This document shows positions 6,304 through 11,366 of a DNA stretch of 12,458 bases, piece after piece (the first letter of the stretch is position 1; the number at the start of each line of letters is the position of its first letter). The stretch comes from a virus. Lineage: Duplodnaviria > Heunggongvirae > Uroviricota > Caudoviricetes. The stretch is taken from IMG/VR virus record IMGVR_UViG_2645727562_000019; one strand, 5' to 3'. The notes under the pieces were generated by a model that made no database searches, was not told the origin of the DNA, and saw only the letters and a list, made by a program, of their open reading frames with translations. The position numbers and the translations under genes were made by a program.

Positions 6304-6461
6304 TTGCTAACCTCCTCCCATAGCTCGTTATCGTTGGCTACATCGCGAGCTTCTTTGCTGACGAAAGCCCACTTAATGCCTTCCTGTAAGGTGCGGAACT
6401 TCCAGCTCATGAATCCGCATGCAGTAACGCAGTACCAACCGTTGATGATTTTCCACTGCAT
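6300..6461 (-). CDS. Small Trp-rich protein (53 aa), first gene of the leftward operon; absent from the ORF track (below 60 aa)
   Basis: Manual translation of the minus strand gives MQWKIINGWYCVTACGFMSWKFRTLQEGIKWAFVSKEARDVANDNELWEEVSK. ATG at 6461 with GAGG 9 nt upstream; stop TGA 6300-6302 overlaps the next ATG (ATGA). Confidence 0.45.
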   Translation of the reverse strand: MQWKIINGWYCVTACGFMSWKFRTLQEGIKWAFVSKEARDVANDNELWEEVSK

Positions 6462-6480
6462 AACTTGTTACCTCGGTTTG

Positions 6481-6557
6481 TTACCGTTGAGGTAATAATT
6501 ATGCGTATCTGGTTTGATGTCAATAGATATGAGTTAAAAAAATTACCCGTTAGGTAA
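6481..6557 (-). promoter_or_regulatory. PL-like early-left promoter with two operator palindromes
   Basis: Minus-strand TTGACA (-35) at 6518-6523 followed by an AT-rich -10 region. TTACCGTTGAGGTAA at 6481-6495 lies between the -10 and the mRNA start; TTACCCGTTAGGTAA at 6543-6557 lies 19 bp upstream of the -35. The layout mirrors lambda OL/PL. Confidence 0.6.
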
Positions 6558-6570
6558 TCTAATAGGCAAT

Positions 6571-6592
6571 AAAAAAGCCGCCAGAAGGCGGC
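6571..6592 (-). terminator. Intrinsic terminator ending the repressor transcript
   Basis: GCCGCC-agaa-GGCGGC stem-loop (6577-6592) followed on the minus strand by a U6 tract (A-run 6571-6576 on plus), 23 bp downstream of the repressor stop. Confidence 0.7.
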
Positions 6593-6614: not shown

Positions 6615-7199
6615 TTATTGTTTGTTTTTTTCGTTCTGGTTGATGACAAATTCAATGTAACTTTCGATCTTTGCTTTCTCGGTTTCGGGTAACAAAGCGT
6701 AGCGCGAGCGGTCATAGTTGATAGTCGCAGGGTCGTGCGGGTGAATCAGTAATTCATAGCCGTGACGCCCGAATGCGGATGCAACATTCTCCAGGGTGGA
6801 AATGGAAACGCTGACCTCATTGTTTAACAGGCGGCTGATTGTCACCTGGGCGACGCCGGATGCGCGGTGAAGTTTTCCCTGCGTTGAAAGGTCGCGGCTT
6901 TCGCTCATCCAGCGTTCCAGGTTGTGAGCCGCCAGCTGACCAATGTCGCTTGGTCCGACAGGCTGAAAACCTTCCTGAGAAAGCGAGCGATCGATATCAA
7001 GCCAGTTACGGGGTTTATTGGCGGCAGCTTCAATTTTTCGCGCAACCTGGTCGCCGATAACCTTCTTGCCAAGAGCCCAGCGGTTTACCAGATTTGCCTG
7101 AGTTCCAAGTTTTTCTGCCATCCGCGTCTGAACACCATTGAATTCACGGTCGATCAAGTCGTTGAGATTTTGCCTACGGACGTCCTGGATACTTTTCAT
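6615..7199 (-). CDS. Prophage repressor candidate (CI-like role): two XRE-type HTH domains, no recognisable S24 peptidase/autocleavage domain
   Basis: 194 aa. N-terminal HTH-like segment VQTRMAEKLGTQANLVNRWALGKK and a second HTH-like segment LSTQGKLHRASGVAQVTISRLLNNEVSVSISTLENVASAF. Divergent from the Cro-like gene with an operator cluster between them; no obvious SD before ATG 7199. Confidence 0.65.
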   Translation of the reverse strand: MKSIQDVRRQNLNDLIDREFNGVQTRMAEKLGTQANLVNRWALGKKVIGDQVARKIEAAANKPRNWLDIDRSLSQEGFQPVGPSDIGQLAAHNLERWMSESRDLSTQGKLHRASGVAQVTISRLLNNEVSVSISTLENVASAFGRHGYELLIHPHDPATINYDRSRYALLPETEKAKIESYIEFVINQNEKNKQ

Positions 7200-7254: not shown

Positions 7255-7328
7255 TTACCCAACAGGTAAATGCACCCCATAGGTAACCATCCTTGATTTT
7301 TGTTACCTTATGGGTGAATATTTATTAT
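7255..7328. promoter_or_regulatory. OR-like operator cluster with PR-like promoter
   Basis: Three palindromes: TTACCCAACAGGTAA (7255-7269), GCACCCCATAGGTAA (7272-7286) and TTACCTTATGGGTGA (7303-7317). Candidate rightward promoter TTGTTA (7300-7305), 17-bp spacer, TATTAT (7323-7328), 26 bp before the cro-like ATG. Confidence 0.55.
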
Positions 7329-7950: not shown

Positions 7951-8790
7951 ATGAGCAGACATGCAACAGATTGGGCCTGGGAGACAGATCCAGGTAGCTC
8001 GTCATTAAAGCTCATACTGCTCTCGATGGCTGACAGAGCCGATGAATATAACCTCTGCTACCCCAGCATAGAACGCCTCGTTAAAGACACTTGCCTGAAT
8101 AAAAAAACCGTACAGGCCGGGCTTATATCGCTCATGAAAATGGGGCTTATTTCAGATACCGGAGAGAGAAAGGGAGCGACGAAAAGAGTGCGGGTTTTCT
8201 CTCTTAATATAACCAAAAAAGGGAACATTAAAGGCAACCTAGATGGGTGTAATGAACCCGAAAACGGTAATGTTCCCAAAAACGGGAATATACCCAAAAA
8301 CGGGATGTTGAATGATCCCAAAAACGGGATGTTGAATGATCCCAAAAACGGGATGTTGAATGATCCCAAAAACGGGATCCAGAACCAGTCATATAACCAG
8401 TCATTTAACCAAGAGAGGGAGAGCAGGACAAAAACCGGGGATTCTGTGCCTCATGACCCCGGCGCAAACAACGCCGTGATGAATAACTTTGTTCCTCCTG
8501 GTGGGCCAGGGCAATTAGGCAAATTTGTCATGCATGAACAATGGCAGCCATCAGATGACTTTCTTCGGAAAAGCTCATTGCAGGGAATCTACCTGGACAG
8601 TCTGCCAACGGCACAGGAACTTGCAGAGTTCAGAATTTACTGGATGGCTGAGGGTAAGGCATACCATCAGGCACAGTGGGAGCAGAAGCTGGCAAGGCGG
8701 CTGCAGATTAGCAGACAGAAGCAATCAACATTACCTGATAACAACGTTCCGCACTGGAACAGCCCTGAAGCATGGGAGGATTTCTTGTGA
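7951..8790 (+). CDS. Replication initiator (lambda O-like), N-terminal winged-helix DNA-binding domain, iterons embedded in the coding sequence
   Basis: 279 aa; GGAG SD 7 nt upstream. N-terminal DWAWETDPGSSSLKLILLSMADRADEYNLCYPSIERL resembles phage replication-initiator HTH domains. The middle encodes PKNGMLND x3 from iteron DNA, as in lambda O. Placed directly upstream of the P-like gene. Confidence 0.75.
   Translation: MSRHATDWAWETDPGSSSLKLILLSMADRADEYNLCYPSIERLVKDTCLNKKTVQAGLISLMKMGLISDTGERKGATKRVRVFSLNITKKGNIKGNLDGCNEPENGNVPKNGNIPKNGMLNDPKNGMLNDPKNGMLNDPKNGIQNQSYNQSFNQERESRTKTGDSVPHDPGANNAVMNNFVPPGGPGQLGKFVMHEQWQPSDDFLRKSSLQGIYLDSLPTAQELAEFRIYWMAEGKAYHQAQWEQKLARRLQISRQKQSTLPDNNVPHWNSPEAWEDFL
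8257..8378 (+). repeat. Origin-of-replication iterons: six copies of the CCCAAAAACGGGA core (three as the perfect 16-bp palindrome ATCCCAAAAACGGGAT)
   Basis: Cores start at 8257 (degenerate CCCGAAAACGGTA), 8275, 8293, 8317, 8341 and 8365, spaced 18, 18, 24, 24, 24 bp. Followed by the AT-richer direct repeat CCAGTCATATAACCAGTCATTTAACC (8383-8410). Confidence 0.8.
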
Positions 8791-9572
8791 ACAACGTTTT
8801 TACCGCGATACAAAACCGTGACGGAGAAGCCCTTTCTCGCATGTCAGGTTATGAGCATCAGTACACCAACAATGACAACGTGGTGAACATGTCAGCAGAG
8901 AGGCTTGTTGATGCCCTTTTCAAACAGCTGAAACAACTGTTTCCGGCGGCAGTGGTAACCAACCTGAAGACGCCAGAGCAGGAAGTTGCTGCAAAACAGC
9001 AGTGGATTGCTGCGTTTGCCGAAGGGGGGATCCGAACCCGTGAACAGGTTTCTGCTGGTATGCGCCACGCCCGCGCCAGTGAATCTCCGTTCTGGCCGTC
9101 GCCAGGGCAATTCATCAAGTGGTGTAAAGACAGCAAGATGGTTCTTGGCGTCACCATTGACGATGTGATGGCGGAGTTTCACCGGTACAGCAAGGAAAAA
9201 AGTTTATATCCTGGTGGTCCCGAAAGATTCCCGTGGCGACATCCGGTTATGTACTGGGTCGTATGTGATACCCGCCGTGCAATGTATCAGCGCCAGCTTA
9301 GCGAGATTGAGGTTGAGAAACACGCGCGCAGGCTGCTCGATGATTGGGCGAAAAAGGTGGCTTCCGGACAGCAGATACCCGATCCGGTGATCAGCATACA
9401 GGCAAAGCCAGAACCCATGAGTACACCTCCGGACACAGGGAGAGACGTTTACCATCCACCAGGGCGAAGTTTCGGGTGCATGCCTAACGCCGCCACCCTG
9501 GGGGGAATAACACCGGCGCAGTGGCTGATGGAGGAATACAGGCGGGGAAAGGCGGCAGGATTTATCAAGTAA
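8787..9572 (+). CDS. Replication protein P-like (DnaB helicase loader)
   Basis: Clear resemblance to lambda P as recalled: FPAAVVTNLKTPEQEVAAKQQWIAAFAEGGIRTREQVSAGMRHARASESPFWPSPGQFIKWCKDS against lambda FPASLA...RRQWVLAFRENGITTMEQVNAGMRVARRQNRPFLPSPGQFVAWCRE. Start taken at GTG 8787 with GGAGG 7 nt upstream (GTGA overlap with the O stop); the track alternative is ATG 8772. Confidence 0.85.
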   Translation: MNNVFTAIQNRDGEALSRMSGYEHQYTNNDNVVNMSAERLVDALFKQLKQLFPAAVVTNLKTPEQEVAAKQQWIAAFAEGGIRTREQVSAGMRHARASESPFWPSPGQFIKWCKDSKMVLGVTIDDVMAEFHRYSKEKSLYPGGPERFPWRHPVMYWVVCDTRRAMYQRQLSEIEVEKHARRLLDDWAKKVASGQQIPDPVISIQAKPEPMSTPPDTGRDVYHPPGRSFGCMPNAATLGGITPAQWLMEEYRRGKAAGFIK

Positions 9573-9577
9573 TACCA

Positions 9578-9597
9578 GCGCGATAGCGCATTTTTTT
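9578..9597 (+). terminator. Candidate intrinsic terminator after the P-like gene
   Basis: GCGC-gata-GCGC short GC stem followed by A-T7 (9590-9597), 6 bp after the P stop. The stem is short, so efficiency is uncertain. Confidence 0.4.
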
Positions 9598-9609
9598 ACG
9601 CCTCAATAG

Positions 9610-9686
9610 TTACCTGATGGGTAATAAAATATTCTAAAATCTATTGATTTCGTGTCTTATGTGGTTTTTAATTACCTCAGGGGTAA
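9610..9686 (+). promoter_or_regulatory. Third operator-controlled promoter, with the same architecture as the PL-like region
   Basis: TTACCTGATGGGTAA (9610-9624), 19 bp, TTGATT -35 (9644-9649), 22 bp, TTACCTCAGGGGTAA (9672-9686), then ATG at 9690. The gaps (19 and 22 bp) and the 62-bp operator centre spacing are identical to the PL-like region read on its coding strand. Confidence 0.55.
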
Positions 9687-9689
9687 ATC

Positions 9690-10043
9690 ATGAGAAAACA
9701 GATACAGGCTCTTGGTCGACTCAAAACAGGCCAGATGAACAAAACAGAATCTGCGTATTGCCAGCACCTTGAGCAGCGTAAACGTGCAGGGGAAATCGCC
9801 TGGTATCGATTCGAGGGTATCAAGCTGCGGTTAGCTGATAACTGCTTCCTGACTGTAGATTTTGCCGTGATGTTGGCTGACGGGCAGTTGGTGATGGTGG
9901 ACGTTAAGGGAAGTAAGTCAGTCTTTACTGACGATGCGAGAGTCAAGATGAAGGTTGCGGCAGACAGCTATCCGTTTGTCTTTCAGGTTGCTTATCCAAA
10001 ACCTAAAAAGCTCGGTGGTGGATGGGAGGTTGAGGAACTATGA
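9690..10043 (+). CDS. DUF1064-family protein (PD-(D/E)XK nuclease-like fold)
   Basis: 117 aa; pattern ESAYCQHLEQRKRAGEI...FEGIKLRL...VDFAVMLADGQLVMVDVKG...KMK fits the phage DUF1064 family signature as recalled (...AGEI...F.L...Y.ADF...VEDVKG...). Stop overlaps the next ATG (ATGA). Confidence 0.6.
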   Translation: MRKQIQALGRLKTGQMNKTESAYCQHLEQRKRAGEIAWYRFEGIKLRLADNCFLTVDFAVMLADGQLVMVDVKGSKSVFTDDARVKMKVAADSYPFVFQVAYPKPKKLGGGWEVEEL

Positions 10044-10648
10044 GCGAGAAGCCCAATGCTGCGGGATTGATTGTATCCGGTGATAAAAACCCGAATTGGA
10101 AGGGTGGGAAAATCGAAAAGGTTTGCTCCGTATGTGGCAGGCAATATCAGGTTAAGCGAGCCAACTCCTCTTCAAGGTTCTGCTCACTTCAGTGTGTAGG
10201 AATTTCACAGCGAGGCAAGACGGTAAATCGGGAACTAAAGCGAGTATTAAAAATATGCTGCGTATGCGGATCTTCGTTCTCCGTTTTCTTGAGTCATGAG
10301 AAGCGTCATAAATGCTGCTCGAAACAGTGTTCCAACATAATGCGTTCTTCTCTGATGAAGGGGGAAGGAAATCCAAACTGGTCTGGTGGATTATCGAGAT
10401 TGCCGTATCCGTGGGATTTCCGAGAAACGAGCAAGAGGGTTATTGAGCGAGATGGTTTTACTTGTCAGAACCCAGGTTGTGATGGAACAGACAAAAGGCT
10501 AACAACTCATCATATCAATTACGACAAGCAAGACTGTCGTCAGGAGAACCTTATTTGTCTTTGTTCGAGCTGTAACTCGAAGGCTAATTTCGGTCGGCAT
10601 AAGTGGCAAAAGTTTTATGAATCACTGATGAAAAATAGATCGGCATGA
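10040..10648 (+). CDS. HNH endonuclease with duplicated N-terminal Cys-rich modules
   Basis: 202 aa. C-terminal HNH core CQNPGCDGTDKRLTTHHINYDKQDCRQENLICLCSSCNSKAN. NPNWKGG (aa ~17) and NPNWSGG (aa ~111) motifs, with two Cys-rich segments between them: CSVCGRQYQVKRANSSSRFCSLQC and CCVCGSSFSVFLSHEKRHKCCSKQC. Confidence 0.8.
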   Translation: MSEKPNAAGLIVSGDKNPNWKGGKIEKVCSVCGRQYQVKRANSSSRFCSLQCVGISQRGKTVNRELKRVLKICCVCGSSFSVFLSHEKRHKCCSKQCSNIMRSSLMKGEGNPNWSGGLSRLPYPWDFRETSKRVIERDGFTCQNPGCDGTDKRLTTHHINYDKQDCRQENLICLCSSCNSKANFGRHKWQKFYESLMKNRSA

Positions 10649-10709
10649 ATCGACGATCTTTTTAGTTATCAATGTAATCAATAAGTTATGTGGATAAGCG
10701 AGGGTAAAG

Positions 10710-11366
10710 ATGGAAAGTAATATCAAAGGGTTAGTTACCGCCGGGCATGAGATGGCTTCGGAACTGAAAGCAGAATGTGGCGCCGTTGATATGCGTAGTG
10801 TGGCAAAGCTGATCAGCGATTTGGCAACGCAACTGGAAGTGCAACTGGAAGTGCAACTGGTGCGTGCTAATGCGCTGGCCGAAGACCAACAGAAAGCGAT
10901 TGAGTCAATTAAGCAGGCTGATTCGGCTGTTAAGTTGGCACACGAGAAGTTTTCGGCGCTGGCGGCGGAGAATGCGGTAATGCTCGAAACTATTGAAGCC
11001 GTTCGCAGTGTTGCGGATAACTCCAGTGGAATTGCCGGATGGCATTTGAATGGCGATATCGCCACATGGGAAGAGATTCTTCCTGAAATTAACGATATCG
11101 AAACCCCAGCCACCGATGCTTTTCTGGCTGAAGGGAAGACTGAAGCACGCAAGGAAGGCGCTTATTTTGTGGCGAACAGAATGTTGGCAGCTTGGAAAGC
11201 TGGTTTTATTGATGATACTGCGAAGAACGCCGCGGATATTGCCCGGATGATCCTTACCTCTACTGAGTTTATGGCTAATGCGCCGGAAGGCGATTTTGAT
11301 CGCTCATTCTCTGATGGCGTTCTCGAAGATATCGCCGAACAGCTTCGTAAAGGAGTCATCCAATGA
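10710..11366 (+). CDS. Hypothetical protein (218 aa), acidic, with a short QLEV tandem repeat
   Basis: ORF with GAGGG SD about 10 nt upstream. No domain recognised by eye. Stop overlaps the next ATG (ATGA). Confidence 0.55.
   Translation: MESNIKGLVTAGHEMASELKAECGAVDMRSVAKLISDLATQLEVQLEVQLVRANALAEDQQKAIESIKQADSAVKLAHEKFSALAAENAVMLETIEAVRSVADNSSGIAGWHLNGDIATWEEILPEINDIETPATDAFLAEGKTEARKEGAYFVANRMLAAWKAGFIDDTAKNAADIARMILTSTEFMANAPEGDFDRSFSDGVLEDIAEQLRKGVIQ
10830..10862 (+). repeat. 12-bp tandem repeat CAACTGGAAGTG, about 2.7 copies, in frame within the 218-aa ORF
   Basis: gcaactggaagtgcaactggaagtgcaactggtg encodes QLEVQLEVQLV. Confidence 0.8.

Follow-up and report, generated by a model that had tools for sequence, protein, structure and literature searches.

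The 12,458 nt stretch of DNA analyzed here, termed the window (IMG/VR virus record IMGVR_UViG_2645727562_000019), is part of an Escherichia coli lambdoid prophage and carries an open reading frame (ORF) for an HNH nuclease immediately downstream of a DUF1064 gene. Closely related prophages that lack the HNH ORF also have a different DUF1064 3′ end, and the two sequences together form an 803 bp cassette (9843–10645) that is either present or absent as a unit. From these comparisons, we consider it probable (roughly 0.6) that this is a promoter-less HNH homing cassette that replaces the 3′ end of its target gene, as in the mORF elements. The novelty lies in finding such cassette anatomy in a phage, strictly tied to DUF1064. 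The features that define it are as follows.

9690–10043, + strand: DUF1064 gene, 117 aa, predicted PD-(D/E)XK nuclease; a hybrid with a resident 5′ part of 153 nt and an imported 3′ part of 197 nt
9834–9842, + strand: left junction, the last bases in common with HNH-less prophages (GCTGATAAC, codons for LADN), with divergence from 9843
9843–10039, + strand: left part of the cassette, an imported sequence that replaces the DUF1064 3′ end
10040–10648, + strand: HNH nuclease ORF, ATG to TGA, 202 aa, supported by a PHROG 1271 match, the ratio of non-synonymous to synonymous substitution rates (dN/dS) and an AlphaFold2 model
10646–10663, + strand: right junction, TGAATCGACGATCTTTTT, identical in prophages with and without the HNH ORF

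The junctions were defined by aligning the window with three HNH-less prophages (L004–L006). Identity is 96–100% through the 5′ part of DUF1064 as far as position 9842 (ending GCTGATAAC) and falls to 56–58% over the remaining 197 nt of the gene. The entire HNH ORF is absent from these prophages, and 100% identity returns exactly at its stop codon. The HNH ORF and the DUF1064 gene of the empty allele stop at one and the same TGA, with the same ATCGACGATCTTTTTAGTTAT after it. An example of an empty allele, comprising DUF1064 and the spacer, is NZ_CP018970.1 at 3613310–3613780. The cassette consists of the replacement DUF1064 3′ end and the HNH gene, joined by an ATGA overlap between the DUF1064 stop and the HNH start codon. 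A preliminary description made from the window alone had called the endonuclease free-standing, a description that is incomplete: the gene lacks a promoter and a spacer, shares bases with the upstream stop codon and moves with the DUF1064 3′ end.

The HNH ORF was found in 22 of 5,426 complete E. coli genomes, with every copy at least 99.3% identical, and a search of these genomes in distant mode returned no carriers beyond the 22. The DUF1064 gene is present in about 530 E. coli genomes, of which about 508 match over the first 153 nt only, while the divergent 3′ segment is confined to the 22 carriers of the HNH ORF and present in all of them, next to the ORF and at 100% identity. This exact co-occurrence identifies the 803 bp cassette as the unit of presence and absence. 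The polymorphism among near-identical prophages that had been proposed earlier as a check is borne out by these figures, with the HNH ORF carried by 22 of about 530 genomes having the same DUF1064 5′ part, and with exact junctions.

More diverged phages display the same association. The DUF1064 3′ part of the window is 83–94% identical in nucleotide sequence to the HNH-linked alleles of other phages, and the HNH ORF 76–83%. Third-codon-position identity among diverged HNH-carrying phages is lowest in the DUF1064 5′ part (0.58) and higher in the 3′ part (0.74) and HNH (0.70), indicating that the 3′ part has a history in common with HNH rather than with its own 5′ part; this describes linkage of the flanking sequence rather than the conversion process itself. 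Judged from these alignments, the excess nucleotide identity of the 3′ part is attributable to tighter protein constraint together with shared history. A conserved DNA or RNA element within the 3′ part was considered and rejected, as its third-position identity is the same as that of HNH. Nor was a recent sweep adopted, since no clear contrast separates cassette and flanks in the HNH-carrying E. coli loci, which are 97–99% identical over several kb.

The HNH ORF is a real gene under purifying selection, given dN/dS values of 0.04–0.12 (at dS of about 1–2.7) between it and eight relatives with 76–89% identical proteins. The E. coli allele that is 99.3% identical to that of the window differs from it by four synonymous and no non-synonymous changes. 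In spite of this, the ORF is uncalled by RefSeq annotation (PGAP) in all 22 complete E. coli carriers; the only annotated feature under the HNH match is the upstream gene, by way of its 4 nt overlap, and a gap of about 660 bp was seen in the three loci inspected (11045–11710 of L001; 2505–3170 of L002 and L003). The exact protein is recorded in GenBank as 'HNH endonuclease' from E. coli, and near-identical members of the same 90%-identity cluster are named in Salmonella and Klebsiella records. At least 1,000 contigs encode the exact protein. The result flags a conserved gene that is omitted by RefSeq annotation of complete E. coli genomes. The upstream gene scores 23.0 bits against Pfam DUF1064, just below the cut-off of 24.7, and its alleles are named DUF1064 in RefSeq. 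DUF1064 proteins are predicted PD-(D/E)XK nucleases (PMC1189080, PMC3424549).

Homing would proceed as follows. An HNH-carrying phage genome would meet an HNH-less relative, and the zinc-ribbon array of the protein (described below) would position the nuclease domain on the HNH-less DUF1064 allele, which the enzyme would then cut. Repair of the break would use the HNH-carrying copy as template, through two crossovers: a left one within the conserved stretch that encodes EGIKLRLADN and reaches to 9842, and a right one at the DUF1064 stop codon or past it. This would give the recipient a foreign DUF1064 3′ end and the HNH gene yet leave it with an intact DUF1064, and HNH would be read from the DUF1064 message via the ATGA stop/start overlap. 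That the protein is a nuclease with a target site, that the imported allele is immune and that homing takes place are what we infer from the comparisons.

Two known systems provide parallels. In phage T4, promoter-less cassettes of free-standing HNH and GIY-YIG endonucleases spread with co-conversion of their flanks (PMC2988022). The T-even mobA–mobE genes likewise encode an HNH domain fused to a separate DNA-binding region, lack promoters, are read from the upstream message, occur sporadically between conserved genes and are transferred with their flanks (PMC2988022, PMC2790892). The DNA-binding region of the Mob proteins is C-terminal, whereas the array in the window protein is N-terminal; furthermore, the window cassette belongs to a temperate lambdoid prophage and does not sit in a spacer but replaces the 3′ 40% of the neighboring gene up to the stop codon. 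The mORF elements are closer in this respect. They comprise a resident 5′ part, an inserted foreign C-terminus, an endonuclease ORF and a remnant of the native C-terminus (PMC3630166), and have been described for atp6 of Allomyces macrogynus and for atp6, atp9, cox2 and nad3 of Glomus, where the remnant may be partial, in frame or wholly replaced (PMC3630166). The window corresponds to the wholly replaced case, as in Glomus atp9, and four related loci described next (L138, L132, L134 and L135) to cases with a remnant (PMC3630166). The mORF endonucleases are of the LAGLIDADG or GIY-YIG type and occur in fungal mitochondria, while the window has an HNH protein, in a bacteriophage, with a small phage nuclease gene as its proposed target.

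If homing is correct, E. coli lambdoid prophages would offer a small system, well suited to experiment, in which the endonuclease cassette carries a spare 3′ end of the target gene; until now, fungal mitochondrial mORF elements have been the described case of this arrangement. Homing would also account for a mosaic boundary that lies inside a gene in phage genomes. The natural filled and empty alleles differ by the 803 bp cassette alone, which makes cleavage-site mapping and crosses straightforward.

HNH relatives with 51–100% identity were collected from 31 loci of E. coli, IMG/VR enterobacterial prophages, Kluyvera, Janthinobacterium and metagenomic phage contigs. In 30 of these, DUF1064 lies immediately upstream and usually overlaps the HNH start; the single exception (L054) is a decayed copy, a 5′-truncated HNH fused to another gene. 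No DUF1064 was found near more distant superfamily members in the loci examined. In several relatives the native DUF1064 end persists, displaced to the 3′ side of the HNH gene, and remnant lengths of 0, about 3, 12 and 30 codons have been seen at the junctions of family members. In L138, the HNH stop codon is followed in frame by AKIKIAAALFPFRFIAARLIKKQWEFEQF and a stop, a diverged second copy of the last 30 DUF1064 codons, while the intact DUF1064 copy upstream ends in VKIKVAASLFPFNFKMMILKKGAWEQRDF and a stop. In L132, L134 and L135, as well as several proteins of alignment A1, the HNH ORF is fused to a 12-codon DUF1064-type tail, KKDGGGWxxEEF, before the stop; the alignment A1 proteins that end in KKxGGGWxxEEF are P0023, P0028, P0031, P0036, P0053, P0078, P0090, P0095 and P0108. 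We read this tail as a retained native gene end, on the evidence of these alignments, and its good conservation would also fit a peptide with a function of its own or a homology arm that the element has retained. For the 213–222 aa enterobacterial variants, C-terminal extensions were considered as DUF1064 tails too, and rejected as remnants: an indel has let the reading frame run on into the spacer.

Other variants were seen among the relatives. In Janthinobacterium sp. UMAB-56 (L053, 4001–5035), an HNH relative with 62% identity continues as a 344 aa ORF, representing a C-terminal extension or a fusion, and further extended relatives are P0104 (276 aa) and P0119 (287 aa). Locus L134 carries two extra HNH genes upstream (1–417, − strand; 2130–2636, + strand), L024 has two copies and L030 three; the presence of two or three superfamily HNH genes within a few kb suggests repeated invasion of the same genomes. 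DUF1064 is frameshifted beside an intact HNH ORF in L002 (2152–2504, E. coli HN257) and L018 (3652–4001), so the HNH gene can persist without an intact DUF1064.

The strict linkage invites a different explanation, in which DUF1064 and HNH cooperate in phage replication or recombination and the cassette pattern arises from ordinary mosaic homologous recombination. Adjacency and translational coupling are kept across deep divergence, both genes are under strong purifying selection, and they lie in the replication/nin region by O- and P-like genes. The KKxGGGWxxEEF tail, being present in many relatives, could be a common docking peptide, and in distant enterobacterial phages DUF1064 and HNH move as a block. 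On the other side, about 96% of the E. coli prophages with this DUF1064 lack HNH and have its catalytic motifs intact, which indicates that DUF1064 does not need HNH. The second DUF1064 end of L138, with its 30 diverged codons after the HNH stop, is a relic of insertion and not a functional tail, and the window protein has no tail at all. We regard this explanation as unlikely, but as the likeliest of the alternatives to homing. We give still less credence to a variant in which HNH is not purely selfish and acts as a second nuclease with DUF1064, KKxGGGWxxEEF being a docking peptide through which both are recruited to a common partner in replication or recombination, and the window protein a tail-less derivative.

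Several other observations weigh against homing. Lambdoid phages are mosaic in any case, and in the distant enterobacterial phages DUF1064 and HNH behave as an ordinary block of two genes, the similarity extending across about 9577–10714. The strong purifying selection and strict synteny would fit a cooperating gene pair as well. Several of the 22 carriers are near-clonal, so there were fewer than 22 independent acquisitions, and neither GC content nor codon usage marks the cassette as foreign. The evidence for native remnants comes from relatives only; there is no native DUF1064 remnant downstream of HNH in the window, where the junction falls at the stop codon, as expected if the DUF1064 end has been wholly replaced. 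Finally, the near-invariant NTFYTPDF of DUF1064 is changed to NCFLTVDF in the enterobacterial HNH-linked alleles, directly after the left junction. Speculatively, this change may point to a possible target, but distant HNH-carrying loci retain NTFYTPDF, so it is not the signature of a general 'immune allele'.

The architecture of the HNH protein is modular, and its parts can be placed as follows.

aa 17–23, 10088–10108, + strand: NPNWKGG motif, with N17, P18, G22 and G23 invariant
aa 27–59, 10118–10216, + strand: zinc ribbon 1, FCS-like, with C29, C32, C48, C52 and an RFCS motif
aa 71–105, 10250–10354, + strand: zinc ribbon 2, with C73, C76, C93 and C97, from invariant Cys residues and the model
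aa 111–117, 10370–10390, + strand: NPNWSGG motif, with N111, W114 and G117 invariant
aa 142–183, 10463–10588, + strand: HNH (beta-beta-alpha-metal) core, an H-N-N variant with a Cys4 zinc site

The two NPNWxGG motifs around two Cys-rich segments ahead of an HNH core, as first described, are thereby upheld with exact coordinates. The motif residues listed, all eight ribbon cysteines and the residues of the HNH core (C142, C147, H157-H158, N170, C175, C178, N179 and N183) are invariant in 35 relatives with 51–100% identity, and so are functional features and not chance occurrences. The core had been called canonical. It is an HNH core with Asn as its third catalytic residue (CNSKAN), which makes it an H-N-N variant. 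From the model and alignment, H158 lies at the end of strand 1, in the position of the general-base His; N170 is the Asn before strand 2 and N179 occupies the metal-ligand position of the helix. The two Cys pairs C142/C147 and C175/C178 form the structural zinc site. Most superfamily relatives have His (CH) where the window protein has N179. The HNH domain of Cas9 also has Asn at the third catalytic position. Taken together, the sequence features indicate that the ORF encodes a modular nuclease with a zinc-stabilized H-N-N beta-beta-alpha-metal domain, for which catalysis is predicted, and the two FCS-like ribbons with their NPNW(K/S)GG linkers probably form a DNA-binding array.

The AlphaFold2 model, built from the family alignment, has a mean predicted local distance difference test score (pLDDT) of 86 and a predicted template modeling score (pTM) of 0.43, a low value that is expected of a beads-on-a-string arrangement. 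It consists of two units of a beta-hairpin and helix, followed by the beta-beta-alpha core (strands 154–158 and 171–175; helix 176–182). Fold matches in the PDB are at domain level only (E > 0.07), to the HNH domains of Cap5, Gme and IscB, and those of the ribbons are weak (FCS zinc finger, 2w0t, and YacG; E = 0.5–1.3). Structural matches over the full length are to predicted phage proteins labeled HNH or 'HNH homing endonuclease', with E down to 4e-12.

Domain searches gave a divided answer. PHROG HNH families match strongly (PHROG 1271, 'HNH endonuclease', covers residues 17–199 with E = 3.7e-23), while Pfam HNH (PF01844; 15.2 bits, cut-off 21.4) and HNH_3 (PF13392; 18.0, cut-off 24.8) fall below the gathering thresholds, as does zf-HIT (18.2, cut-off 24.7), and none of these three was accepted as a curated family assignment. 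No Pfam match to zf-FCS (PF06467) was found for the window protein, although this family passes its cut-off on a multi-repeat relative, P0129 (29.7 bits, cut-off 22.4). The NCBIfam models for IscB, ZorE and IcmJ and the PADLOC model for ZorE match the HNH core only and were set aside; NCBIfam scores are far below their cut-offs, and PADLOC models carry none. The IscB HNH domain is the sole match to a solved structure by sequence profile (E = 1e-4), and IscB is also the best NCBIfam match to the core, at domain level only (35 bits, cut-off 175). Unlike IscB and Cas9, the window protein has no RuvC domain or guide RNA, and an identity as IscB was rejected.

An exhaustive profile search recovered 581 cluster representatives at E ≤ 1e-30 and 14,289 at E ≤ 1e-10, many of which are 250–670 aa long with three to seven matched stretches. 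Their sequences reveal a tandem module, CxxCG..F.V...RFCSxxC and then G..NPNWKGG, in 2 to more than 12 copies before a single HNH core. Since this module is widespread, the window protein has an ordinary architecture, that of a two-copy member, and the NPNW motifs do not form a special bracket around the Cys-rich segments. Multi-zinc-ribbon HNH proteins of phages and archaeal viruses (PHROG 1271 and 8446), such as the Brucella phage Tb HNH and HCTV-5 gp104, have the same repeat unit before one HNH core; they differ in being only 24–38% identical, in their 2 to more than 12 copies, in other gene contexts without DUF1064 and, for most, in having His at the N179 position. Zinc-ribbon HNH endonucleases are a common class, already so named in GenBank. 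In a literature search of limited scope, neither the NPNWKGG motif nor FCS fingers of HNH endonucleases turned up.

A high AT content had also been put forward as a sign of horizontal acquisition, and a candidate hairpin had been noted after the gene. The GC content of the HNH ORF is 44.5%, compared to a window mean of 48.9% (standard deviation 3.1%, 609 nt windows), with 8.4% of windows being lower, and its third-position GC (0.46) is inside the range of the other window genes (0.41–0.59). The ORF is mildly AT-richer than its surroundings, as was noted by eye, but is not an outlier. Neither GC nor codon usage is distinctive enough to mark horizontal origin, and composition, which is within the normal spread of the window, was not used as evidence of foreign origin. 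The candidate hairpin is present where it was reported:

10637–10664, + strand: weak hairpin, AGATCG-11 nt-CGATCT plus T-run, with a 6 bp stem and 11 nt loop, spanning the right junction

It is marginal, with z = −1.9 relative to shuffled sequences, and only its 5′ arm belongs to the cassette, the 3′ arm and T-run being backbone sequence also found in HNH-less prophages. Given the 11 nt loop, and as the terminator scan did not call it, it was rejected as a terminator. The earlier proposal of a horizontally acquired, homing-type HNH gene draws its support from presence/absence and the exact junctions, while the arguments from composition and the hairpin are weak.

The window is 100% identical to part of NZ_CP189657.1, where the prophage integrase adjoins guaA. 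The DUF1064–HNH locus lies in the early-right region, in the replication/nin region beside O- and P-like genes, and its surroundings include the following.

6481–6495, 6543–6557, 7255–7269, 7303–7317 (one mismatch), 9610–9624 and 9672–9686: TTACC-N5-GGTAA palindromes
7951–8790: DnaT/HTH (helix-turn-helix) replication-initiator-like gene, upstream of DUF1064
8772–9572: lambda P-type gene, upstream of DUF1064
Downstream of the HNH ORF: Ead/Ea22-like and DUF551 genes

This setting bears on a further possibility, that the protein is a terminase-associated HNH factor of the HK97 gp74 type, acting in DNA packaging. Relatives with about 31% identity do occur beside or inside genes for the terminase large subunit in Brucella and Gordonia phages. 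The window ORF is in the replication/nin region, upstream of the small terminase gene by about 3 kb or eight annotated features, and a 202 aa protein with two extra zinc modules and a constant DUF1064 linkage does not fit such a role. Most sibling prophages package their DNA without the HNH gene, and we judge this assignment to be highly improbable.

The TTACC-N5-GGTAA palindrome occurs six times in the window, compared to 0.17 expected, and none of 200 shuffled sequences reached six copies. Two of the pairs have a spacing of 62 bp each, one lying in the immunity region beside an HTH gene (6615–7199, − strand) and the other just 5′ of the DUF1064 start. The sequence at 9589–9709 aligns to the reverse complement of 6460–6580, with a common ATCTATTGA core. 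By their sequence and arrangement the palindromes look like repressor operators, and their position 5′ of DUF1064 suggests that DUF1064–HNH has its own repressor-controlled promoter.

Such operators could also serve an exclusion or defense nuclease, one with which the prophage damages the DNA of competing phages and whose spread comes as a by-product of marker exclusion. Free-standing endonucleases of T4 are known to cause marker exclusion (PMC2988022), and the HNH domain of the window protein resembles that of ZorE (PADLOC E = 3.5e-10). The resemblance is limited to the HNH core, with an NCBIfam score of 27 bits compared to a cut-off of 600, and there are no ZorA/ZorB or other defense partners nearby, so an identity as the ZorE of a type II Zorya system was rejected. 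If they are operators for a repressor, the palindromes would keep the gene switched off in the lysogen. An exclusion or defense role is improbable on this balance.

Two minor features lie on either side of the DUF1064–HNH pair. A terminator-like GCGC-GATA-GCGC stem followed by T7 is found at 9578–9596, directly 3′ of the stop codon of the P-type gene, and is kept in HNH-less loci; from its form and position it could be a tR2-like terminator opening a nin-like region. Downstream, the ORF at 10710–11366, for which a family search gave no match, contains a 12 nt tandem duplication at 10835–10858 (two copies of GGAAGTGCAACT), producing a repeated LEVQ in the inferred protein.

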